A stretch of 64,000 nt of DNA from Anaerolineae bacterium (GTDB lineage: Bacteria > Chloroflexota > Anaerolineae > B4-G1 > SLSP01), in NCBI GenBank assembly GCA_034676805.1, contig JAXDDO010000006.1:9305-73304 (forward strand). The letters are read 5' to 3'. Below the pieces are notes generated by a model. It did no database searches, was not told the DNA's origin, and saw only the letters and a list, made by a program, of their open reading frames with translations. This document shows, piece by piece, positions 5,040 to 59,213 of this stretch; the first letter of the stretch is position 1; every line of letters starts with the position of its first letter. Both the position numbers and the translations under genes were made by a program.

Positions 5040-5663
5040 TCAGCCAATCCGCAGGGTCACGAGCAACGCCAAGAGCACCGTGCTCAGCCCGGCAATCGCG
5101 CCGTAACCCAGTAGGGCCACGGCGAAGGCCCACCAGGGCCGGCGCTCTGCAATGAAGGACGATTTCGCGGAGACGACAAGGGTACGGGCGACTTTGTCAC
5201 CCAGCCGCTGACGCAGCGGCGACTTCATCTGGAGATAGGCCACGGCGCCGAAGATCAGGCCGTCAGCAAGCCGCAGGACACCGCGAAGCAGCGCCTGTCC
5301 GAGCGAACAGAGCCGCCCCTCGTAGTTCACCACGCGGAGTCCCAGCAAGAGCTTCCCCACCGTGGCTCCGAAGGCCGCCTCCATTGCGGCCGTGTAGAGG
5401 ATCGACAGAACCAGGGCCAGCGACAATCTCGCCAAGAGCGGCAGATCTGAGCCGACGGTGTAGGTACGCCCGCCCGCTTCCAGCAGGGCAGCGAGCGGCA
5501 GGAAGATGACAACGCTGAAGATCGCTTCCGCGAGGTAGTTGATCAGGACCAACACCACGAGGTCGAGCAGATAGGCCAGCATCCGGATCAGGAACCCCTT
5601 GACCTCGATGCCAGCATCGATGAGAGCCTGTACCTCGGGCGTGACCTCGTGTGTAGAGTACAT
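5040..5663 (-). CDS. RDD family membrane protein
   Basis: AGGAGG RBS. Several TM helices, plus the family-typical segment GATVGKLLLGLRVV and an R..D spacing. Confidence 0.6.
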   Translation of the reverse strand: MYSTHEVTPEVQALIDAGIEVKGFLIRMLAYLLDLVVLVLINYLAEAIFSVVIFLPLAALLEAGGRTYTVGSDLPLLARLSLALVLSILYTAAMEAAFGATVGKLLLGLRVVNYEGRLCSLGQALLRGVLRLADGLIFGAVAYLQMKSPLRQRLGDKVARTLVVSAKSSFIAERRPWWAFAVALLGYGAIAGLSTVLLALLVTLRIG

Positions 5664-5830
5664 TTTGTTCCTCCTGTCACCGGCATCTCGTCATCTTGCC
5701 GCGTCGACCTCACAACGCCATTTCATCATATGCAACGTTGGCCATCCTGGCAACTCGTGTAAACTATGGTGTTGGTGGTCACGCGCACAACGGCGGTCGT
5801 GCCCACCGATAACGCCTGGAGGTTGTGTGA

Positions 5831-7423
5831 ATGCACACGGATACCGCGCTGAATCGCTCGCTGCGCGCGCTGGCGGATCCATGGACGTTGGCATGGGTGC
5901 TCATCTTGCTTGTGAACGACCATGTACTGCGCGTGATCGCCCCCAGTTGGATCACGGGGAAACTCGGGGATGTCGCGTGGCTGGCCTTTGCTCCAATCGT
6001 GGTCGCCGTGCCGCTCGCGTTGGTTGCGCCGCGGCGATGGTCGCAGCGTGACAGAAGGGTCGCACTCCTGGCGTGGGGACTCACCGGCGGGCTCTTCGCC
6101 ATCGTCAAGGCTGTCCCCACGGCGACAGCGACGTTCTCGGCCGGCTTCCGCGGCGTGTTTGGCTGGACCCCGTTGCTGGTATGCGATCCCACTGACCTCT
6201 TGACACTGCCGGCGCTGGCCCTGGCCTGGCGGCGCTGGTGGAAACAAGCTTCCGGGCCGCTACACCTGCCCCGGCGGTCCTGGTGGGTCTTAGGGCTCGC
6301 AGCTCTGGCTACGCTGGCCAACAGCGGTCCGCCCGACGAAGGGATCAGGTGCCTTGTGGTAACCGAGGAAGGGATCCTCGCCTTGCCACGCCACAGCTAC
6401 GGGATAACAGGGACCTTCGTGAGCACCGACGGCGGCCTGATGTGGACCGAGGTGCCGGAGGACCCCGAAAGCACCGGGGCCAGTTGTCCCGCCCGCAAAG
6501 GACCGTGGACATTGGCCGTGCCCGAGTCATCGACTGTCTATCGCTTTACGCCGGGCCAGCGCATTGAACGCTCCACTGACGACGGAGAGACGTGGACGGT
6601 GGAGTTTCGCCTGACCGGCGAAGAGGCCCGGATGGCCTACTACGCGAGCACACGCTACAACGTGCAGGGAGGATCCGGGCCCAACGCAGCCGTCATAGAT
6701 CCAGATAGCGGCAACCTTGTCCTCGCGATGGGCCACGAAGGAGTCCTGGTGCGCACGCCTGCCGGTGAATGGACGTGGGCGCCGGTAGGTGAATACCACT
6801 TCGAGTCGATCACAGGCCTAGACCACCTGACCGTGCTGTTGCTGGGCGAGCTTCAGCTCGCCGCCGCGGTGGCCCTGATCGCTACGAGTTGGCGCACGTG
6901 GCGGCTCTTCCGCCGCCCGGGACAGGCCGCCGTGCTGGTCGCGACCCTGATTGTCGGGTTCGTCGCAGTCGTCGCCCGCCCTGCACATACGACGGGGTAT
7001 GAAGCGATGATCATGAACGTGTTGGTCATCGCCGTCATTGTCATGGCGCTGGTGTTCGCGATTGTGGCCATCGTCCGCCTCATCGGGGCAACGGGCGTTA
7101 ACGACGGGGCGACGCGATTGCGCCGTAGGGACCAGCTGTTGATCACCGCAGGCCTGGCGTTGGGCGCAGCCGTTGTCTTTCTGGCGCCGTTTGTGCTATG
7201 GGCGCTCAGCATCCTGCCAACCTATACCTTGGCGACGTCCATCGCGATCACCCTGACAGCCGTGGCGCTGTTGGGCATCGCGGCGACCGGGCCGTACCCG
7301 GCGGTGGGAGCCCCGGAAGCCGACAGGGTGCTGGAAACGCCAACCATCAGCTCCGATGGAGATACACCTGAGTCTCTAGAGCCGGAAGAGCCAGTAGACC
7401 GGAGCACGCCCGACGAGCTCTAG
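5831..7423 (+). CDS. Polytopic membrane protein with a central extracytoplasmic domain carrying two Asp-box (S-x-D-x-G-x-x-W) motifs; function unknown
   Basis: GGAGG RBS. An N-terminal block of about 5 TM helices and a C-terminal block of about 5 TM helices flank a soluble segment of about 170 aa. That segment contains STDGGLMW (6422-6445) and STDDGETW (6572-6595). The protein has an acidic C-terminal tail. A terminator follows the gene. Confidence 0.6.
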   Translation: MHTDTALNRSLRALADPWTLAWVLILLVNDHVLRVIAPSWITGKLGDVAWLAFAPIVVAVPLALVAPRRWSQRDRRVALLAWGLTGGLFAIVKAVPTATATFSAGFRGVFGWTPLLVCDPTDLLTLPALALAWRRWWKQASGPLHLPRRSWWVLGLAALATLANSGPPDEGIRCLVVTEEGILALPRHSYGITGTFVSTDGGLMWTEVPEDPESTGASCPARKGPWTLAVPESSTVYRFTPGQRIERSTDDGETWTVEFRLTGEEARMAYYASTRYNVQGGSGPNAAVIDPDSGNLVLAMGHEGVLVRTPAGEWTWAPVGEYHFESITGLDHLTVLLLGELQLAAAVALIATSWRTWRLFRRPGQAAVLVATLIVGFVAVVARPAHTTGYEAMIMNVLVIAVIVMALVFAIVAIVRLIGATGVNDGATRLRRRDQLLITAGLALGAAVVFLAPFVLWALSILPTYTLATSIAITLTAVALLGIAATGPYPAVGAPEADRVLETPTISSDGDTPESLEPEEPVDRSTPDEL

Positions 7424-9481: not shown

Positions 9482-10672
9482 ATGGCTATGGCCGAGAACG
9501 AGCGTGAGTTACGCACACTGGCACGCACCGGAAGCGACAGCATGAGAGGCCTTCGGCGACGCCCGCGAGTCGCCGAGACCCTCATCCAGACGTTCCTGTT
9601 CATCTGTGGCGCGATCTCGATCCTGACAACAGTCGGCATCGTCTATGAACTGGGCAAAGAGTCCCTACTCTTCTTCACGCGCCGACAATGGGAACAGACC
9701 AACAAACCACTCGCGGAGGATATCGAGGCCGACCGGACCGCCTTTGAGGTAAGCACCTCGGGTAAACCGTTGCCAGTGGGGGAACTGATCCGGATTGGCG
9801 AAGAGATCATGCGCGTTCAACTAGTCGAGGGCGGCACGGTCACCGTCGAGCGCGGCGTCAGAGGTACCACCGCCACCGCCCACAGGGCCGGGCTGGAAAT
9901 CCAGGCCGCTCAGGACGTGACCCTCGTCGAGTTCTTCGGCAGAACAGAATGGAATCCACAGATCGGCAAGTTCGGCATCTGGGCGCTCGTCAACGCAACG
10001 TTGATCACATCGGCCGTAGCCCTGAGTGTATCGCTCCCCTTGGGATTGGGTGTGGCGATCTACTTGAGCGAATACGCGACCGAGAAAGCACGGGCCACAC
10101 TGAAGCCGATTATGGAAGTCCTGGCCGGTGTTCCGACGGTCGTATACGGATATTTCGCGCTCACGTTCATGACGCCACTGTTGCGAACGCTTCTGGGCAC
10201 CCGCACGGTGGAAATCTACAACACCGCCTCCGCAGGCATTGTTATGGGCATCCTGATCCTGCCACTGGTGAGCTCGATGAGCGAGGATGCGTTGAGCGCC
10301 GTTCCCAATTCACTGCGCGAGGCAGCCTATGCCTTGGGCGCGACCAAGCTGGAAACAGCGATCAAGGTGGTCGTGCCGGCGGCCTTCTCGGGGCTGACTG
10401 CCGCGGTGATTGTCGCGGCGTCACGCGCCATCGGCGAGACGATGATCGTCGCCATTGCCGCTGGGGCCGGTCCCAACTTCACCTTCAACCCTTTCAAAGC
10501 GGCCGAGACGATGACCGGCCATATTGTGCGTATCAGCGGCGGCGACCTGAGCTACAACTCCCTCGACTATAACAGCATCTTCGCCATCGGACTGATGCTC
10601 TTTGTGATGACGCTGACGCTCAACATCGTCAGCCAGCACATTGTGCGCCGGTTCCGGGAGGAGTATGAATGA
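9482..10672 (+). CDS. pstC: Phosphate ABC transporter permease PstC (long form with an extracytoplasmic insertion of about 100 aa after TM1)
   Basis: Typical PstC permease core including the EAA-like loop [23 protein letters not shown]. An ATGA overlap couples it to pstA. Confidence 0.9.
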   Translation: MAMAENERELRTLARTGSDSMRGLRRRPRVAETLIQTFLFICGAISILTTVGIVYELGKESLLFFTRRQWEQTNKPLAEDIEADRTAFEVSTSGKPLPVGELIRIGEEIMRVQLVEGGTVTVERGVRGTTATAHRAGLEIQAAQDVTLVEFFGRTEWNPQIGKFGIWALVNATLITSAVALSVSLPLGLGVAIYLSEYATEKARATLKPIMEVLAGVPTVVYGYFALTFMTPLLRTLLGTRTVEIYNTASAGIVMGILILPLVSSMSEDALSAVPNSLREAAYALGATKLETAIKVVVPAAFSGLTAAVIVAASRAIGETMIVAIAAGAGPNFTFNPFKAAETMTGHIVRISGGDLSYNSLDYNSIFAIGLMLFVMTLTLNIVSQHIVRRFREEYE

Positions 10673-11925
10673 TATCCGAGAGAAAAACCGTGATCGCCCG
10701 TGAGCCGTTTGACCCGGGAGTGCGGCATCGAAACCGACGGGCGGGCTTGTGGCGCAGGGTCTTCAAGGCTGCAACCGCGGTGGGTATCGTTTTCCTAGCC
10801 GCCCTGCTGGTCAGCATCGTTAACGACGCATTCGGCTACGTCGCCATTGAGAACTCCATCGACCCGGCAGCCCTCAGCCCCGATGGCACGCCCTTGGCGG
10901 CATTGCCGAAGGACGTCCTGACCCAGATCCTGGCAGCCAACGTCTCAAAGGGCCTCTTCCGGCGTTTCGAGCATGACCATCCTTTCGAGGACCGTACCCA
11001 AGAAGACGTCTATGGCCTGATCCTTGAGCACGTCGTTGAGCCAAAGATCGTGGCCCAGTGGACGCTATGGGATTCGCTTACACGGCGGCGCGCGATTGCG
11101 GAGGATGTCGCCACGCGCTTTCCTGACGCGGAGCTCCGCTTTGAGACCTGGCTCGACGTCGCGTTCATCACCTCGCCACAGTCAGCGGATGCTGCCAGAG
11201 CAGGCGTACGCACAGCCATTCTTGGCTCGCTCTGGACGATCGCCATCGCGATCGTCATTGCCTTCCCCCTGGGGGTCGGCGCGGCAATCTACCTGCAGGA
11301 ATATGCGACCGAGAATGCCATCAATCGTGTTATCCAGACCAATATCACCAACCTGGCCGGCGTGCCCTCCATCATCTACGGCATGTTGGGGCTGGCGGTC
11401 TTCGTCCGCGCTCTCCAGCCACTGACAAGCGGGGCGCTCTTCGGCCTGGCGGACCCAACGACGGCCAATGGACGGACGATCCTCTCAGCCGGGATGACCC
11501 TGGCACTGCTCATTCTGCCGCTGATCATCATCAACGCCCAGGAAGCGATCAAGGCCGTGCCAAACTCGCTGCGCGAGGCCTCCTTCGGGCTGGGTGCAAC
11601 GCGTTGGCAGACCATCTGGCATCACGTCCTTCCCAGTGCGATGCCCGGCATCCTGACGGGTACGATCCTTTCCATCTCACGCGCCGTTGGCGAGACGGCG
11701 CCGTTGGTGGTGGTGGGGGCGTCGACCTACATCACGATGGACCCAAGCGGGCCTTTCTCGAAATTCACGACGCTACCGATCCAGATCTACCAATGGACAG
11801 CACGTCCCCAGAGTGTTTTCCGCAACATCGCCGCCGCCGCGATTGTCGTCCTGCTCGGCCTGTTGCTCAGCCTAAACGCAGCCGCCATTCTGCTGCGCAA
11901 CCGTTTCAGCAAACGCGCCCTATGA
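10669..11925 (+). CDS. pstA: Phosphate ABC transporter permease PstA (long form with a large loop after TM1)
   Basis: EAA loop [24 protein letters not shown]. An ATGA overlap with pstC and an ATGA overlap with pstB. Confidence 0.9.
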
Positions 11926-52886: not shown

Positions 52887-53307
52887 AGCGTGTCCTCCTG
52901 GATTCCCCTTACCGACAGCGTGCGTCTGCGTCAAGGATACTCGACCAATGGTCCAGGTCAAATGAGCTGCCACGGGCCGACGGGCAGGCGTGCACCGGTG
53001 CACAGACCGGCCTGGCGAAGGTCAGGAACGAGCCTATACTGTCACCTATAAGAGGCCGGTTGTACCGCGCTCTGTGCTCGCCGCTCCCAGGAGATGACGT
53101 TGACTGCCAATGCGTTGTCGGCATCCTGCCCAGTGTGCTCCAGCCTCGGAGAGTTCCGGGAAATCGAGAACGCCCAAGATCCGGGGGAACTGGACGAATC
53201 ACAGGCCTTTCCACTGCGGCAGCGCCTACGTAGCGGCAAGGCAGGGCGCCGGCTCGGAATTGGCGCTCATCGAATCCCGATATCGGGACACGACCAAGGA
53301 GGCGTTT

Positions 53308-54657
53308 ATGCCCACCGACCCACTGTCGTTGCATCCGGACAATCCACACTACATGGTCTTCCGCGGAAAGCCAGCGGTTCTCATCACATCGGGCGAGCAC
53401 TACGGCGCCGTCATGAACCTGGACTTCGATTACCACCGCTATCTCGACGCCCTGGCGGAAGGCGGCTTCAACCTCACCCGGCTCTTTAGCGGCACCTACA
53501 GGGAGCGTCCCGGGAGCCACCGGATCCAGAACAACACGATGGCCCCGCAAGACGCGCGTTTTGTCTGCCCGTGGCGGTGCGTGGAGCGCGGACCGGGCAA
53601 CGCGCCGCTGAAATGGGATCTGACCCAGTGGGATGAAGCCTACTGGCAGCGTCTACGTGACTTCGTGGCCCAGGCCGGCTCCCGCGGCATCGTGGTCGAG
53701 TACGTCCTCTTCTGCTACATGTACAGCGACGAGCTATGGCGCGCCAGCCCCCTGCATCCCGACAACAACGTCAACGGGCTGAGGGTCGAGAACCCTAACA
53801 ACATCTTCAGGCTCGACAACCCACCGGTGCTTGCCGCTCAGGAAGCCTTTGTCCGAAAGGCAGCCCAAGAGCTGAACCGCTTTGACAACGTCTACTATGA
53901 GATCGCCAACGAGCTCTACGTGTGCCAGGACGGCACGCTCTACCTCGACTGGCAACACCATCTCGTGGACGTCTTGCGCGAAGAGGAACGCGCCTTGCCG
54001 GCGCGGCACCTGGTCGCCATCAACTACTGGAACAACGTTGGGCGCGCCGTGCCGCTTCACCCGGACGTGGACATTCTCAACTTTCACTACGCCTTCCCCG
54101 AAGCTGTGGCGTGGAACTACGGCCTGGACCGCGTGATCGCGGACGACGAGACGGGGTTCAAAGGATGGACGAGCACGCCCTACCGCACAGAGGCGTGGGC
54201 CTTTATGCTGAGCGGCGGCGCCGTCTTTAGTCACCTGGACTACAGCTTCACCGTAGCGCATCCCGATGGCACAGCAGCCCTCGTCGACGAGACGCCGGGT
54301 CACGGTGGGCCCGCGTGGCGCGCGCAGTTGAGCGTCCTGAAGCGCTTCTTGGACGCCTTTGATCTGCCGCCGATGGCGCCCCATCCCGAGGCCGCGATGC
54401 CCGGCACAGCGCTCAACACGCGGGTTGCGGTGCTCGCCGAACCAGGCCGGCAGTATGCCGTCTACCTCTGGGGCGGAGGCCCTAACACCGACCTCCGGGT
54501 GCAGTTGCCTGCCGGAAGTTACGAGTTCACCTGGACCAACCCATCAGACGGCAGAACCATCCGGACCACAGAGGTCGATGGGCACAGTGGCGGCACCTAT
54601 ACTGTCAGGACGCCCACCTTCCTGGAGGACCTGGCGCTCTCCATCATCCGCCGGTGA
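53308..54657 (+). CDS. Putative glycoside hydrolase, GH5-like TIM barrel
   Basis: AAGGAGG RBS before ATG 53308. The YYEIANE motif (the acid/base Asn-Glu of clan GH-A). The family assignment is tentative. The track start at 53110 is an intergenic extension. Confidence 0.5.
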   Translation: MPTDPLSLHPDNPHYMVFRGKPAVLITSGEHYGAVMNLDFDYHRYLDALAEGGFNLTRLFSGTYRERPGSHRIQNNTMAPQDARFVCPWRCVERGPGNAPLKWDLTQWDEAYWQRLRDFVAQAGSRGIVVEYVLFCYMYSDELWRASPLHPDNNVNGLRVENPNNIFRLDNPPVLAAQEAFVRKAAQELNRFDNVYYEIANELYVCQDGTLYLDWQHHLVDVLREEERALPARHLVAINYWNNVGRAVPLHPDVDILNFHYAFPEAVAWNYGLDRVIADDETGFKGWTSTPYRTEAWAFMLSGGAVFSHLDYSFTVAHPDGTAALVDETPGHGGPAWRAQLSVLKRFLDAFDLPPMAPHPEAAMPGTALNTRVAVLAEPGRQYAVYLWGGGPNTDLRVQLPAGSYEFTWTNPSDGRTIRTTEVDGHSGGTYTVRTPTFLEDLALSIIRR

Positions 54658-54720
54658 TGCGAGGGGCACAGTGGCGCGCCGTGAGGCCCAACGCGGAATT
54701 TCCATTCTCAGGAGGACCCT

Positions 54721-55839
54721 ATGTTTGATCCGACCAGCTCGAGACTCGTGACACCGTGGACCGACCCGGACTCCGGCGTGACCAGCTACATCCTCACACA
54801 GAAGGTCGCGCCTGTGCAGGAGGCCTTCTACTTCGTCAACCCCAACGTCACCCACGATGGGCGCTACTGGTGGTTCTACTGCGCCTTTCCCCCGTCTGGC
54901 ACGGGGGCTCAGGGCCGAACGCTGGGCGTCGCGGATTTTGCCGCCGGCGAAGTGCGTCACTTTCCCGACACGCAGTTCAATCACGCCTCTCCGTGGGTCA
55001 ATCTCGATACTGGCGCCGTCACGTGGGGCATGGGCGACGCGCTTTGGCGGCGTGGACCCGAGCCCGACGCCGGTGCCGAGCTGGTGAACCGTCTTCCCGA
55101 GGACCTGGTGGGCCACCGCACTGTGTCGCGCATAGCGACCCACCTGACGCTCTCCGCAGACGGGCGGGCGTTCTTTATCGACGCCAACGTGGGGCTGCAA
55201 TGGGTGTTCGGGTCGCTGCCGGTCGATGGAAGCGATTTCGTGGAATGGCACCGGTTCCAGCGCAACTACAACCACGCGCAGTTCAGCCCGACCGATCCCG
55301 ATCTCGCGCTCTTCGCACAGGAGAACCACTCTGATCCCATCACCGGGCTCCGCTTCCGCATCGAGGATCGCCTGTGGTTGATCCGGCGGGGCCAGGCGCC
55401 GCATCCCATCATGCCGGAGCCTACGCGGCTGACGCACGAATGGTGGGACCCCGACGGCCGGCACGTATGGTGCATCAAGAGCGACACCGGGGTGTGGCGT
55501 GTGGATATTGAGACGCAGGAAGTCGAGGAGATCGCGTGGCCAGGCGGGCGCTGGCACTCACACAGCGATGCCACGGGCCGCTACCTGATCGGAGATCGGA
55601 ACCCCACCTTCTACCGGGGATGTCCCTCGACGGTCAACTTCCTGAATCGCGAGACAGGGAAAAGCGTGCGCCTGGTGGACAACCCCGAAATGGCCAACTA
55701 TACCGGCGCGAACTACCACATCGACCCGCATCCCCGCTTCTGCTGTGGCGACCGCTTCGTCGTCTTCACCACCACCGTGCGCGGTGTGGTGGATGTTGCC
55801 CTGGCGCTCACTGCCGACCTGATCGAAAGAACTTCGTAG
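54721..55839 (+). CDS. Oligogalacturonate-lyase (PL22)-like beta-propeller protein
   Basis: From memory, several segments resemble Ogl-family proteins: the N-terminal segment (DPDSGVTSYILT...FYF..P.VT.DGRY), THEWWDPDG, and the C-terminal HIDPHPRF...VVFTT. Confidence 0.55.
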   Translation: MFDPTSSRLVTPWTDPDSGVTSYILTQKVAPVQEAFYFVNPNVTHDGRYWWFYCAFPPSGTGAQGRTLGVADFAAGEVRHFPDTQFNHASPWVNLDTGAVTWGMGDALWRRGPEPDAGAELVNRLPEDLVGHRTVSRIATHLTLSADGRAFFIDANVGLQWVFGSLPVDGSDFVEWHRFQRNYNHAQFSPTDPDLALFAQENHSDPITGLRFRIEDRLWLIRRGQAPHPIMPEPTRLTHEWWDPDGRHVWCIKSDTGVWRVDIETQEVEEIAWPGGRWHSHSDATGRYLIGDRNPTFYRGCPSTVNFLNRETGKSVRLVDNPEMANYTGANYHIDPHPRFCCGDRFVVFTTTVRGVVDVALALTADLIERTS

Positions 55840-55847
55840 GAGCTACT

Positions 55848-56750
55848 ATGCCCAAGGACTTTGTCAGTTTTCTGGACTACACACCCGCCGAGATCACCGC
55901 TCTGCTGGACCTCGCCGCGGAGCTGCGCGTTGCGTGGCAGGCCCGTACAATGCCACAGCCACTGGCGGGGAAATCCTACGCCCTGATCTGGGACGCCGAA
56001 GGGTTTCGTAACCGTGTCTCGTTCGAACTGGGGATCGCAGCGCTCGGTGGAACCGGCGTCCAGATTCCGGGACGGCTCGATGCGCGGGAGTCCATCGAGG
56101 ACGTCGCCAAGTACCTGGGCAACTGGTTCGACGGCATCGTAGCGCGCACACGTACCCACAGCCACATGGAGCGCCTGGCCGCCGCGTCGCCCGTTCCCGT
56201 CATCAACGCACGGACCGACTTCAACCACCCGTGCGAGATCCTGGGCGATCTGGCCTATATCCGCGACCGCCGCGGCAGACTGAATGGGATCAAGGTCGTC
56301 TTCGTGGGCGAGGCCACCAACCTCTGCCATCCGTGGTTCGAGGCAGCGGCCCGGCTCCCGCTGGAGGTCGTGCAGGTCTGCCCAATGGGCTATGAGGTCA
56401 GTCAGTGGTTTCTCTCACGAGCGAGGCGCAACGCAGCCGGCAAGCTGCGCGTCAGCCACGACCTGGAGGCGGAGCTGCGCACTGCCGACGTGATCTACAC
56501 CGACTGCTGGCCCGCACGACCGGACGATGAGACACGGGCCCGCGTCGAGCGCAGATTCCTGCCCTACCAGATCACTGCCGCGCACCTTCAATCAGCGCCG
56601 TCCGATGTGCTCTTCCTGCCGTGCCCGCCGGTGACACGCGGTGAGGAAGTCTCGGAAGACGCGATGGCTCTGCTGGGTCACCAAGTCTTTGAGGCGAAGG
56701 CCTACCTCCTGCACGCACAAAACGCCATCTTGGTGACGCTGGCATCCTGA
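55848..56750 (+). CDS. Aspartate/ornithine carbamoyltransferase-fold protein with non-canonical substrate motifs
   Basis: Collinear with OTCase over the full length (300 aa): ...ESIEDVAKYLG..FDGIVAR, HPCE, RGEEV, C-terminal helix. STRTR is replaced by GFRNR, DxxxSMG is absent, and HCLP is replaced by LPCPP. The RBS TAGGAG overlaps the stop of the PL22-like gene. Confidence 0.75.
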   Translation: MPKDFVSFLDYTPAEITALLDLAAELRVAWQARTMPQPLAGKSYALIWDAEGFRNRVSFELGIAALGGTGVQIPGRLDARESIEDVAKYLGNWFDGIVARTRTHSHMERLAAASPVPVINARTDFNHPCEILGDLAYIRDRRGRLNGIKVVFVGEATNLCHPWFEAAARLPLEVVQVCPMGYEVSQWFLSRARRNAAGKLRVSHDLEAELRTADVIYTDCWPARPDDETRARVERRFLPYQITAAHLQSAPSDVLFLPCPPVTRGEEVSEDAMALLGHQVFEAKAYLLHAQNAILVTLAS

Positions 56751-56846
56751 GCATCAGCGGCGACACGAAGCTCTACACAGCCCTGGCGACCGGAAGACCG
56801 CTCACGGTGGGATGCGCTCTGGGCCGGCAAGGTGCGATGGCCGCGA

Positions 56847-59213
56847 TCAGAAGGCCTCGTGCTCGGTCCGGGCGATGATCTCGTCCTGGAGCGCCCGGCT
56901 CAGGTCACAGAAGTAGTCGCTGTAGCCCGCCACGCGCACAATCAGCGTGCGATACCGTTCGGGGTCTGCCTGCGCCGCGCGGAGTGTGGCGGCATCGACG
57001 ACGTTGAACTGGATGTGATGGCCGTCCAGCGTGAAGTACGTCCGCACCAACTGTACCAACCCATCAAGCCCCGCATCGTCGGCCAACAGCCGCGGCGTGA
57101 ACTTCTGATTGAGCAACGTGCCTCCCGTGCGCACGTGATCCATCTTGGCCACGGACTTAATGACCGCCGTGGGCCCGGAGCGATCGGCTCCCTGGACCGG
57201 AGAGATGCCCTCCGAGACCGGCGTGCCAGCTCGGCGACCGTCCGGCGTGGCGCCGGTTACCGACCCGAAGTAGACATGGCACGTGGTCGGCAACAGATCG
57301 ATGTGATAGGCGCCGCCTTTGGTATTGCGCCGCCCGTCAATCGCAGCATAGTAGGTCTCGAAGACACGCACCATCACGGCATCGGCAACCTGGTCGTCGT
57401 TGCCATACTTGGGGGTGCGGTTGAGCAGGAGCTGGCGCACGCGCTCGTGGCCCACGAAGTCAGCGTCGAGGGCGGCGAGAAGGTCGGGCAGCGTCAGGCT
57501 CTGCCGGTCGAAGACGTGAACCTGGAGCGCCGTCAAGGCATCGGTGATCGTGCCCAACCCCACGCCCTGGATGTAGGAAGTGTTGTACCGCGCCCCACCA
57601 TCGTGGTAGTCGCGCCCGGTGGCAATGCAGTCATCGATGAGCAGCGACAGAAACGGCACTGGCATATAGCGGGCATAGAGCCGCTCAATGACGTTGTTGC
57701 CGCGGATCTTGATGTCAACGAAGTGCTGCACCTGCCGCCGGAACGCATCGAAAAGCTGCTCGAACGTTGTCCACGTGGTGGGGTCGCCGGTCTGGGGGCC
57801 GATCTGCTTGCCCGTGCGCGGGTCGATGCCGTTGTGGAGCGCGATCTCGAGCACTTTGGGCAGGTTGAAGTAGCCCGTCAGGTTGTAGTTCTCCTTCCCA
57901 AACGCTCCCGTCTCGACGCACCCGCTGGTGCCGCCCGCCCGCGCATCGACCAGCGACTTACCTTGGCGCAGCAATTCCTCCACCACCAGATCGGCGTTGA
58001 AGACCGAGGGCTGCCCAAACCCGGTGCGGATGATCTCCGCTGCGCGCCGGATGAACCGGTCGGGGTTCTTCTTGCTCACCTGGATCGACGAACTGGGCTG
58101 TAGCAGCCGCATCGCCTCGATCACGTCCAACAGTAGAAAGGTGACCTCGTTGACGCCGTCAGAGCCGTCAGCCCGCACGCCGCCGGTGTTGATCTGGGCA
58201 AAGTCGGTGTACGTACCGCTCTCCGCCGCCGTGACGCCCACCTTGGGCGGGGCAGGCTGGTTGTTGAACTTGATCCAGAAGCACTGCAGCAGCTCCTCGG
58301 CTTGCGCTCGGGTCAGAGTACCGTCGGCCAGCCCGCACCGGTAGAAGGGCTCCAGGTGTTGATCCAACCTGCCTGGGTTGAACGCGTCCCACGGATTGAG
58401 CTCCAGGGTGACACCCAGGTGGACAAACCAATAGGCTTGCAGGGCCTCCCAGAAGGTGCGGGGCGCGTGGGCCGGAACCCTCTCACAAACTTCGGCGATC
58501 TGCAGCAGCTCCGCCTTGCGAGCCGGGTTGGGCTCTCCTTCTGCCAACGTGCGCGCCCTCTCGGCGTGGCGCAGCGCGAAGCGGACGATCGCGTGAGCCG
58601 CGATGTGCATCGCCTTCAGTTGCTCCTGCCGGTCATAGGCGGTGGGATCGTTCAGATAGTCAAGGCGCGCCAGTTGCGCCTCGATGTCGGCCGCGAAGTC
58701 GAGCATGCCCCGGCGGTAGATCTTGTCGTCCAGCGTCGTATGCCCGGGGCCGCGCTGCTCCATGAACTCGGTGAAGATACCGGCCTCGTACGCATCTTTC
58801 CATGCGGCGGTCATCTCGCGGAAGATCGCCTCGCGCATCGTCTTGCCGCGCCAGAAGGGCAGGATGGTCTCGGCGTAGGCCTGACGGGCCTCCTGGCTCA
58901 CCTTGAACGGGATCTTCTCGCGCCCATCGAGGAGCTCCAGATCGTCCAGCGTATGACAGCACAGCTCGGGATACGTAGGCGCGGCCTTCGGCGCAGGCCC
59001 TTTCTCGCCTACGATGAGTTCGCCCGGGTTGATGCAGATGGCCTTGTGCTCCATCAGATAACGGAACGCCAGCGCCCGGCGCACCGGTGCGGAGACCGGC
59101 CCCAGATCTCGCCCGTAGAACGCCGTCAGCAGCTCCGCCCGCTCGATGGAGAGGGTAGGCACTGCATCCAGGCTTTGCTGCCGCAACCGTGCAACACGCT
59201 CGGTTATCGCCAT
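56847..59213 (-). CDS. Glycyl radical enzyme, PFL2/dehydratase clade; active site resembles trans-4-hydroxy-L-proline dehydratase (HypD)
   Basis: C-terminal glycyl radical motif IVRVAGYSDYF (G763) and thiyl loop SGCVE (C432/E434). 788 aa. The start is coupled to the upstream gene (TGAGGACCTATG). Confidence 0.9.
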   Translation of the reverse strand: MAITERVARLRQQSLDAVPTLSIERAELLTAFYGRDLGPVSAPVRRALAFRYLMEHKAICINPGELIVGEKGPAPKAAPTYPELCCHTLDDLELLDGREKIPFKVSQEARQAYAETILPFWRGKTMREAIFREMTAAWKDAYEAGIFTEFMEQRGPGHTTLDDKIYRRGMLDFAADIEAQLARLDYLNDPTAYDRQEQLKAMHIAAHAIVRFALRHAERARTLAEGEPNPARKAELLQIAEVCERVPAHAPRTFWEALQAYWFVHLGVTLELNPWDAFNPGRLDQHLEPFYRCGLADGTLTRAQAEELLQCFWIKFNNQPAPPKVGVTAAESGTYTDFAQINTGGVRADGSDGVNEVTFLLLDVIEAMRLLQPSSSIQVSKKNPDRFIRRAAEIIRTGFGQPSVFNADLVVEELLRQGKSLVDARAGGTSGCVETGAFGKENYNLTGYFNLPKVLEIALHNGIDPRTGKQIGPQTGDPTTWTTFEQLFDAFRRQVQHFVDIKIRGNNVIERLYARYMPVPFLSLLIDDCIATGRDYHDGGARYNTSYIQGVGLGTITDALTALQVHVFDRQSLTLPDLLAALDADFVGHERVRQLLLNRTPKYGNDDQVADAVMVRVFETYYAAIDGRRNTKGGAYHIDLLPTTCHVYFGSVTGATPDGRRAGTPVSEGISPVQGADRSGPTAVIKSVAKMDHVRTGGTLLNQKFTPRLLADDAGLDGLVQLVRTYFTLDGHHIQFNVVDAATLRAAQADPERYRTLIVRVAGYSDYFCDLSRALQDEIIARTEHEAF

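Follow-up and report, generated by a model that had tools for sequence, protein, structure and literature searches.

A transcarbamylase-fold lineage with altered hallmark motifs, represented by a gene of an Anaerolineae bacterium

Fold and motifs of the transcarbamylase-like gene

We analysed a stretch of 64,000 nucleotides (nt) from the Anaerolineae bacterium assembly GCA_034676805.1 (contig JAXDDO010000006.1, positions 9,305 to 73,304 of the forward strand; hereafter, the window), which contains a gene for a protein of 300 amino acids (aa) with the fold of the transcarbamylases. SxRT, HPxQ, and HxLP are the motifs common to all known transcarbamylases (PMC4581275); the protein, here called P0001, carries none of them. 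Its homologues start at the identical MPKDF, indicating that the start of the open reading frame (ORF) is correct. The motifs were aligned against the ornithine transcarbamylase (OTC) of Pyrococcus furiosus (1a1s) and 120 homologues (at least 59% identity), and columns were compared among three groups, i.e., 55 sequences of the subclade containing P0001, nine of its sister group, and 60 canonical OTCs. The gene and the sites discussed below are as follows.

55848..56750, + strand: transcarbamylase-fold gene (P0001), ATG start, 300 aa, from the ORF and its translation
56001..56015, + strand: G52-F53-R54-N55-R56, replacing the S-T/L-R-T-R phosphate loop, from the 1a1s alignment
56145..56147, + strand: Arg100, the beta4 arginine (Arg141 of human OTC), retained and invariant
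56211..56213, + strand: Arg122, replacing Leu of NGLSD and specific to the subclade (Arg in 55/55; Met in 9/9 of the sister group; Leu in 60/60 canonical OTCs)
56226..56237, + strand: H127-P-C-E130, replacing HPxQ, from the alignment
56319..56321, + strand: Asn158, counterpart of the Asn167 that binds ornithine in E. coli OTC, kept in the alignments
56502..56513, + strand: D219-C-W-P222, replacing D-x-W-x of DxxxSMG; Asp kept, SMG lost, the following loop variable
56619..56630, + strand: P258-C-P-P261, replacing HCLP (120/120 homologues at each position)
56697..56714, + strand: K284-A-Y-L287-L-H289, replacing the canonical A-E-N-R-L-H, from the three-group columns

Pfam recognized two domains in P0001, OTCace_N (PF02729, 3.6e-32) and OTCace (PF00185, 1.1e-28), both above their cut-offs. 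The best solved relative was 1a1s (E 5e-53), with which P0001 is collinear over residues 3–297; a sequence-only reading of this DNA had described the ORF as collinear with ornithine/aspartate carbamoyltransferases, and the two domains and the alignment bear this out. The AlphaFold2 model, built from a 55-sequence alignment, had a predicted local distance difference test score (pLDDT) of 95.3 and a predicted template-modelling score (pTM) of 0.93. In the Foldseek search with this model, structures of OTC and putrescine transcarbamylase (PTC) matched with template-modelling scores (TM) of 0.87–0.92 at no more than 36% identity; among them were Mycobacterium tuberculosis ArgF, P. furiosus OTC, Arabidopsis OTC, and Enterococcus faecalis PTC. 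P0001 has the aspartate/ornithine transcarbamylase superfamily fold, and its top structural matches were all OTC or PTC, with no solved structure in its own subfamily.

The score of P0001 was under every NCBIfam cut-off, and no NCBIfam model was found for its group. The OTC models gave 243.6 against a cut-off of 306 bits (NF001986) and 215.7 against 280.85 (TIGR00658), the PTC model gave 197 against 500 bits (TIGR04384), and the aspartate transcarbamylase (ATC) model gave 75.4 against 236.95 (TIGR00670). Among the models of the knotted transcarbamylases, NF003384 gave 88.4 against 288, and the YgeW models gave 25 and 20 against 453 and 500. ATC is marked by RxQxER and HPLP; no RxQxER occurs in the P0001 sequence. 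HDLP together with a (T/S)RWQTTG or TRWQSMG loop characterizes the diaminopropionate/diaminobutyrate transcarbamylases (PMC4581275); P0001 has neither and reads PCPP and TDCWPARP. The scores and the absence of the three universal motifs support the view that P0001 fits none of the characterised classes, i.e., OTC, ATC, PTC, N-acetylornithine transcarbamylase (AOTC), N-succinylornithine transcarbamylase (SOTC), and YgeW, in agreement with what had been claimed from the sequence.

In the phosphate loop, STRTR is replaced by GFRNR. Positions 55998–56015 code for EGFRNR, and the alignment confirmed the substitution as first read. G52, F53, R54, and N55 were invariant in the 55 sequences; among the 120 homologues, Gly, Arg, and Asn were each found in 119 and Phe in 118. 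The sequence-only reading had stated that both Arg are kept and that Ser and Thr are lost. These substitutions are real; however, the second residue of the motif in canonical OTCs is naturally Thr (30/60) or Leu (23/60), and therefore what the motif has truly lost is its Ser, now Gly, and its second Thr, now Asn. Since Leu occurs at that position in canonical OTCs, Phe53 represents a mild change. In addition, Lys53 of FxKxSxRT is Ala50 in P0001.

HPxQ reads HPCE, as proposed, with Glu130 in 120/120 homologues compared with Gln in 60/60 canonical OTCs. Alignment likewise upheld the reading of the canonical D-T-W-T-S-M-G as D219-C-W-P-A-R-P and the retention of RGEEV. The HCLP motif had been reported to read LPCPP; it is indeed altered, but the aligned stretch is P258-C-P-P261, in which His and Leu are lost and Cys and Pro are retained. 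In known transcarbamylases, the HxLP motif has a cis Leu-Pro turn. Near the end of the protein, Lys284 was found in 55/55 subclade sequences versus Ala in 58/60 canonical OTCs, and Leu287 in 55/55 versus Arg in 54/60; the new Lys284 lies three residues N-terminal to the lost Arg. The Arg of the canonical ENRLH motif corresponds to Arg319 of E. coli OTC.

Further changes were Val/Thr to Cys220, which is nearly invariant in the subclade, canonical Asp to Glu155, and an 80's loop three residues shorter than that of canonical OTC. The number of columns fixed in the subclade and differing from the sister group or canonical OTC was 29. The canonical residues kept were Arg54, Arg100, His127, Asn158, Asp219, Cys259, RGEE, and the LHAQ stretch. 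The beta4 arginine, Arg141 of human OTC, binds carbamoyl phosphate, and Asn167 and Asp231 bind ornithine in OTC (PMC4581275).

Family signature, sister forms, and distribution

The word-indexed search listed 120 homologues with 59–76% identity, most of which were labelled 'ornithine carbamoyltransferase' or unnamed. G-F-R-N-R, HPCE, N158, YTDCWP, FLPCPPV, and RGEEV were invariant or nearly so in the homologues listed, and the signature residues were still invariant in 55 sequences down to 43% identity. Judging from this conservation, the altered motifs are a family signature and not decay.

We then searched cluster representatives exhaustively, obtaining 362 clusters at E<=1e-30, and prepared a motif table and a maximum-likelihood tree. 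An HPCE clade of 22 cluster representatives was recovered with 100% support, nested among canonical OTCs; P0001 fell inside it in a 99%-supported subclade of 11 representatives. The HPCE clade is marked by HPCE and, in nearly all members, by D-x-W-P, P-C-P-P, and A-K-x-x-L-L, and the subclade of P0001 by G-[FW]-R-N, Arg122, and usually Cys220. The sister group within the HPCE clade carries S-[LM]-R-T-R or G-F-R-T-R; S-x-R-T-R is retained in sister forms P0246, P0256, P0268, P0270, and P0370. As reconstructed, the tree shows that the HPCE lineage arose within the ornithine-transcarbamylase branch. Because sister forms keep SxRTR within the HPCE clade, the phosphate loop was remodelled stepwise, after the other two motifs had changed.

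A metagenome scan aimed at the wider HPCE clade yielded only distant HPCE-type proteins at 28–46% identity, and these loci shared no gene context except for one LysW-type arginine cluster (L112:3396-11882, contig Ga0233437_1000275). This cluster comprises argH, lysX, argC/lysY, lysZ, lysJ, a GNAT-like gene, the HPCE transcarbamylase gene, and lysK. The transcarbamylase of L112 (273 aa, 10001-10819; SLRTR/HPCE/TDAWP/PCPP), whose gene lies between lysJ and lysK, is absent from the maximum-likelihood tree and was placed in the HPCE type by its motifs. This context suggests that an enzyme with HPCE, PCPP, and Lys284 could still carry out genuine transcarbamylation in arginine synthesis. As the gene precedes that of the LysK hydrolase, the enzyme may act on carrier-bound (LysW-gamma-) ornithine; if true, this would add a new step to the LysW-type route of arginine synthesis.

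Two further forms were observed. An HPCE-type group of approximately 294 aa (SIRTR, HPCEVLAD, TDSLP, NPCPPFYRGEE) occurred at L107, L109, and L117-L119; L109, L117, and L118 were labelled human gut metagenome, and the gene at L107 adjoins glyoxalase, PCC-domain, DUF1287, and MerR/TipAS genes. The cluster representative P0247 (446 aa) is a GFRNR-type protein with DUF6508 as a C-terminal fusion (E 1.8e-16); no mention of this domain was found in the literature searched.

In the same literature, 'GFRNR' was not found as a protein motif, and the search for transcarbamylase-like orphans returned only a 2015 review (PMC4581275) and unrelated work. That review already noted many transcarbamylase-like sequences without the essential motifs (PMC4581275); thus, the existence of transcarbamylase orphans was known. 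The literature searched describes neither the HPCE/G-[FW]-R-N clade nor its signature, graded sister forms, or distribution.

To describe the distribution, we used a pattern scan of one genome per species (185,579 species), in which at least 177 stretches encode a relative. We kept 80 of the 177 loci, giving 81 loci with the window; genes were called by a simple ORF heuristic, and many carrier genomes are metagenome-assembled genomes (MAGs). The 80 loci bear 11 phylum labels, including Chloroflexota, Bacillota, Pseudomonadota, Spirochaetota, Actinomycetota, Verrucomicrobiota, and Planctomycetota, and the cultured Acetanaerobacterium elongatum is among the carriers. On the 81-row family tree, phylum labels changed at least 17 times compared with a minimum of 10, a count that MAG binning errors may inflate. 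The family was absent from 300 other genomes of the same class (present in 1/301), and the three best matches there, at 38–42% identity, were canonical OTCs. In the Bacillota MAG OH_CDB_60, two family copies lie on different contigs (L067 and L068) and adjoin in the tree, with end branches of 0.015 and 0.026.

The genome of the window (G000; 84% complete, 85 contigs) contains four transcarbamylase-fold genes, i.e., a canonical OTC gene (SLRTR, HPCQ, DTWTSMG, HCLP), an ATC gene adjoining dihydroorotase, an unclassified paralogue adjoining an M20 peptidase gene, and P0001. The unclassified paralogue (contig C77, L003:976-1965, - strand) carries FSSTRTR, HPFQ, and HPLP and is itself under every NCBIfam cut-off (OTC 258 versus 306, AOTC 251 versus 288, YgeW 200 versus 453). 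Five other carrier genomes had exactly three transcarbamylase genes each, with a canonical OTC in 5/5 and an ATC confirmed in 3/5. Since P0001 is thus an additional paralogue beside canonical argF and pyrB, it is not the enzyme of arginine or pyrimidine synthesis.

Members of the G-W-R-N type were found in cultured bacteria (Rhizobium, Pantoea, and Variovorax) on plasmids, with two copies adjoining IS66 genes. In R. leguminosarum (pRLgr12_2, L152:7983-8855), the gene lies amid APH-family, nucleotidyltransferase, AAA-ATPase, extra aspS, and IS66 genes. Pantoea sp. At-9b carries one copy directly after IS66 transposase genes (pPAT9B05, L153:8028-8900) and another 36 nt downstream of a FosA-like fosfomycin-resistance gene (pPAT9B01, L155:6477-7774). 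The Variovorax paradoxus plasmid has a G-W-R-N member at L154:8001-8834, where the record is unannotated. The three annotated plasmid copies are labelled 'ornithine carbamoyltransferase', a label that is almost certainly wrong. Culturable carriers thus provide the orthologues WP_013511294.1 and WP_255360086.1 (Pantoea sp. At-9b), WP_233943161.1 (R. leguminosarum), and the A. elongatum protein at L063:5598-6482. Phage records contained no member of the family, their matches all being canonical OTCs at 34% identity or less, and no PADLOC model matched P0001 or the plasmid orthologues. At the gathering threshold, Rfam found no riboswitch or T-box in 24 whole family loci, only tRNAs and group II intron pieces. 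These results show that the P0001 family is rare, patchy, partly plasmid-borne, and mobile.

Gene neighbourhood in the window and at other loci

In the window, P0001 is the last gene of a co-oriented run.

53308..54657, + strand: P0003, co-oriented gene upstream of P0002, with weak Apiosidase-like and DUF6298 matches
54721..55839, + strand: P0002, upstream co-oriented gene, a putative distant relative of PL22 oligogalacturonate lyases, TAG at 55837-55839
55838..55842, + strand: AGGAG ribosome-binding site overlapping the upstream TAG, read from the sequence
56847..59213, - strand: convergent downstream gene for a glycyl radical enzyme with PFL-like and Gly_radical domains

The gap between P0003 and P0002 is 63 nt and that between the P0002 stop and the P0001 ATG is 8 nt; the 8-nt spacing, and the ribosome-binding site overlapping the stop, had been read correctly from the sequence. 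The start of P0003 is uncertain, with an alternative open ATG at 53110. The glycyl radical enzyme gene is outside the P0001 transcription unit, and scanning 52900-57000 for promoters and terminators gave results no better than chance level. Sugar-acid and glycoside genes are plentiful in the region, including those for GH2, MR_MLE, aldo-keto reductases, and a LacI-type regulator.

The labels 'GH5-like' and 'PL22-like' given to the two upstream neighbours are weak. P0003 had only sub-threshold Pfam matches, to Apiosidase-like and DUF6298. P0002 matched no Pfam family even at E<=10 and no PDB sequence; two of its relatives at 59–63% identity carry PF14583, and one at 67% identity is named 'oligogalacturonate lyase family' by NCBI.

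These neighbours were not found to accompany the family. Using tblastn, the PL22-like gene was detected near the family gene at 0/80 other genome loci and on 0/3 metagenome contigs, and a GH5-like homologue at only 1/83 loci (L006), split over two frames. On the three metagenome contigs, which carry close homologues, one family gene is isolated, one follows a GDSL lipase gene, and the third stands between a ferredoxin-domain gene and a metallo-beta-lactamase-fold gene. Homologues at 72–76% identity also have neighbours unlike those in the window. The placement of P0001 behind the PL22-like gene is therefore peculiar to the window genome and does not reflect a conserved partner. The split homologue (L006:5355-6687) was matched by tblastn in two pieces, 5355-5855 and 5863-6687, and could be either a pseudogene with a frameshift or an artefact of assembly. 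Genes for MR_MLE, ADP-ribosylglycohydrolase, and GH2 are present on its contig, three families that the window likewise has upstream of P0001.

All-against-all clustering of the ORFs from the 81 loci revealed no shared neighbour; the largest non-self cluster was a generic ABC ATPase scattered in 17 loci. Upstream neighbours were co-oriented within 60 bp at 22/79 loci and downstream neighbours at 12/76. The 134 adjacent genes comprised 146 Pfam families, the commonest being GNAT (6), isochorismatase (4), glyoxalase (4), and NUDIX (3), and the 122 next-but-one genes included GNAT (2), isochorismatase (2), and APH (2). No carbohydrate-active family was among the 25 most frequent Pfam families of either set. 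Among 100 control genes located 5 kb or more away, none of GNAT, isochorismatase, glyoxalase, NUDIX, and APH reached two. We regard the excess of GNAT, isochorismatase, glyoxalase, and NUDIX as a weak, post hoc hint.

Candidate functions and comparison with known transcarbamylases

We took P0001 to be a functional protein that uses its cleft because the invariant residues line the catalytic cleft of OTC and the lineage is intact across deep divergence. The reading that we prefer, tentatively and with somewhat less than even confidence, is that P0001 may be a stand-alone enzyme for an amino-acid-like substrate with a remodelled carbamoyl-phosphate site. It would be a trimeric small-molecule enzyme working in its interdomain cleft. 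Arg54, Arg100, and His127, together with the backbone amides of Gly52-Phe53, which the Gly leaves available, would hold an anionic acyl donor; this would be carbamoyl phosphate or a compound much like it, and its binding would be looser than in OTC or of a different kind. The amino group of the donor would be held by Glu130, which could accept the same hydrogen bonds from the carbamoyl NH2 as Gln, and by main-chain carbonyls at the Cys259-Pro260 turn. Asn158 and Asp219 would anchor the amino-acid-like acceptor, and Arg122, Cys220, Glu155, and Lys284 would set a specificity other than ornithine; the placement of Lys284, Arg122, and Cys220 relative to the cleft is read from the alignment. The reaction would either make a ureido compound or cleave it phosphorolytically, and the role might be an accessory one that needs a single gene, e.g., salvage or detoxification.

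Several points weigh against this proposal. The three motifs universal in known transcarbamylases (PMC4581275) are all altered. Binding of carbamoyl phosphate may be gone because the phosphate-binding Ser, the second Thr of STRTR, and the ENRLH Arg are lost. The hydroxyl of the lost Thr contacts carbamoyl phosphate, and catabolic transcarbamylases usually sit beside carbamate kinase and a transporter. Neither of the latter was among the most frequent families of the 134 adjacent and 122 next-but-one genes. A putative phosphate-binding function other than carbamoyl transfer, which the sequence-only reading had suggested, is possible.

It is also conceivable, although unlikely, that P0001 no longer uses carbamoyl phosphate and acts, e.g., as a ureido- or carbamoyl-hydrolase ('decarbamoylase'). 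In this scheme, the residue attacking the ureido carbon would be Cys259 (or Cys220), with Glu130 as the general acid/base and Lys284 stabilising the oxyanion, by analogy with the Glu-Lys-Cys arrangement of nitrilase-superfamily carbamoylases. The disappearance of the phosphate-loop hydroxyls (Ser to Gly52, Thr to Asn55) and the ENRLH Arg (to Leu287) in the subclade would suit such chemistry, as would the invariance of Glu130, Lys284, and Cys259 and the near-invariance of Cys220. Gly52 and Phe/Trp53 are fixed, which resembles selection for a new site more than decay, and a solitary gene suits a one-step hydrolase. However, Glu130, Lys284, and Cys259 are also present in the sister forms that keep SxRTR, and one such HPCE-type gene lies in an arginine cluster; therefore, these residues are not specific to phosphate-free chemistry. 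The Cys at the HCLP position is conserved in ordinary OTCs too, where it is not known to act as a nucleophile, and Arg54, Arg100, and the new Arg122 still point to an anionic ligand.

A third explanation, likewise improbable in our estimate, is that P0001 is a non-catalytic pseudoenzyme, i.e., either a ligand-binding or regulatory trimer, whose sensed or sequestered ligand would be an antimetabolite, a ureido compound, or an amino acid, or a subunit that mixes with a canonical transcarbamylase. Alteration of all three hallmark motifs, the absence of conserved pathway partners in the 81 loci, and the rare, patchy, and mobile phyletic pattern are consistent with this, and so are resistance-type neighbours (FosA-like, APH-family, nucleotidyltransferase, extra aspS, GNAT, and glyoxalase genes). 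However, the conserved residues line the catalytic cleft (His127, Arg100, and the Cys-Pro-Pro turn), and catalysis fits them at least equally well. Enrichment among the neighbours is weak and was noted post hoc (GNAT in 6/134 and 2/122 genes versus at most 1/100 controls), and neither PADLOC matches nor members in phage records were found. Mixed trimers are doubtful because the identity of P0001 to the OTC of its own genome, by inspection and not computed, is well under 50%.

The G-[FW]-R-N subclade might have abandoned carbamoyl phosphate altogether. It would then either perform a new chemistry, e.g., that of a Cys/Glu/Lys ureidohydrolase, or capture an anionic antimetabolite, the single gene spreading on plasmids for detoxification or resistance. 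We consider this unlikely; if true, it would be the first member of this classic family known to function without carbamoyl phosphate.

That the substrate is linked to carbohydrates (a uronate, an amino sugar, or a sugar phosphate), as the sequence-only reading suggested from a GH5-like, PL22-like, and transcarbamylase-like operon, is very improbable. The three co-oriented genes with short gaps, the ribosome-binding site overlapping the upstream stop, and the sugar-acid and glycoside genes nearby speak for it in the window. Across the 83 loci, however, the family proved to be randomly distributed with respect to carbohydrate genes: the PL22-like gene was never found again, the GH5-like gene was found once and apparently broken, the most frequent neighbour families included no carbohydrate-active one, and the homologues at 72–76% identity have other neighbours. 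In addition, P0001 retains Asn158 and Asp219, whose counterparts in OTC contact ornithine at its amino-acid end (PMC4581275). The supposed carbohydrate link is thus removed as a misleading functional inference.

Finally, we give next to no credence to P0001 being a functional, unusual ornithine carbamoyltransferase of arginine biosynthesis or catabolism: its best profile and structure matches are OTCs, and JGI, NCBI, and RefSeq label many members as such, but it scores under all OTC model cut-offs (e.g., 243.6 versus 306 bits), has lost Lys53, SMG, Gln136, the phosphate-loop Ser/Thr, and the ENRLH Arg, accompanies a canonical OTC in 6/6 carrier genomes examined, and was not found in arginine clusters at the 81 loci.

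Comparison with known systems places the preferred reading, a stand-alone enzyme with a remodelled donor site, in context. OTC (ArgF; P. furiosus 1A1S, M. tuberculosis ArgF, and Arabidopsis OTC) has the same two-domain fold, length, and collinearity (TM 0.88–0.92). P0001 keeps the equivalents of Arg57, Arg106, His133, Asn167, Asp231, and Cys273 in E. coli numbering. It differs from OTC in having GFRN, HPCE, and PCPP and in having lost SMG, Lys53, and the ENRLH Arg; it has gained Lys284, Arg122, Cys220, and a shorter 80's loop, and it coexists with a true argF in the genomes checked.

PTC (E. faecalis, 4A8H/3TXX) matches P0001 comparably in structure (TM about 0.91) and, with 197 bits by NCBIfam, ranks directly behind OTC among the named classes. 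It is an enzyme of the OTC branch whose second substrate was changed via a rewritten 230's/240's loop. PTC has STRTR, HPTQ, HCLP, and a C-terminal helix of approximately 20 residues (PMC4581275), whereas P0001 has none of these motifs, no C-terminal extension (300 aa), and no (Y/W)(G/W)(V/L/I)x loop. YgeW, likewise an orphan of the transcarbamylase fold, shows that orphan members exist; its second substrate was unknown as of the 2015 review (PMC4581275). The knotted YgeW has a proline-rich loop and a 120's loop that is extended, and carbamoyl phosphate is a substrate according to its structures (PMC4581275). Unlike YgeW, AOTC, and SOTC, P0001 is collinear with the unknotted OTCs, and its top structural matches are all OTC or PTC.

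The HPCE sister forms and the L112 transcarbamylase, likewise uncharacterised, share HPCE, D-x-W-P, P-C-P-P, Lys284, Leu287, and the short 80's loop with P0001; the sister forms differ in that their phosphate loop still has its Ser and Thr and that Met stands in place of Arg122. The P0001 lineage belongs to a textbook enzyme family and has all three motifs replaced, with sister forms that show intermediate steps. It is a tractable target for enzymology, with orthologues in culturable bacteria, a confident model, and a short list of diagnostic residues, and it lets one ask how far the fold can depart from the carbamoyl-phosphate chemistry of its known relatives.

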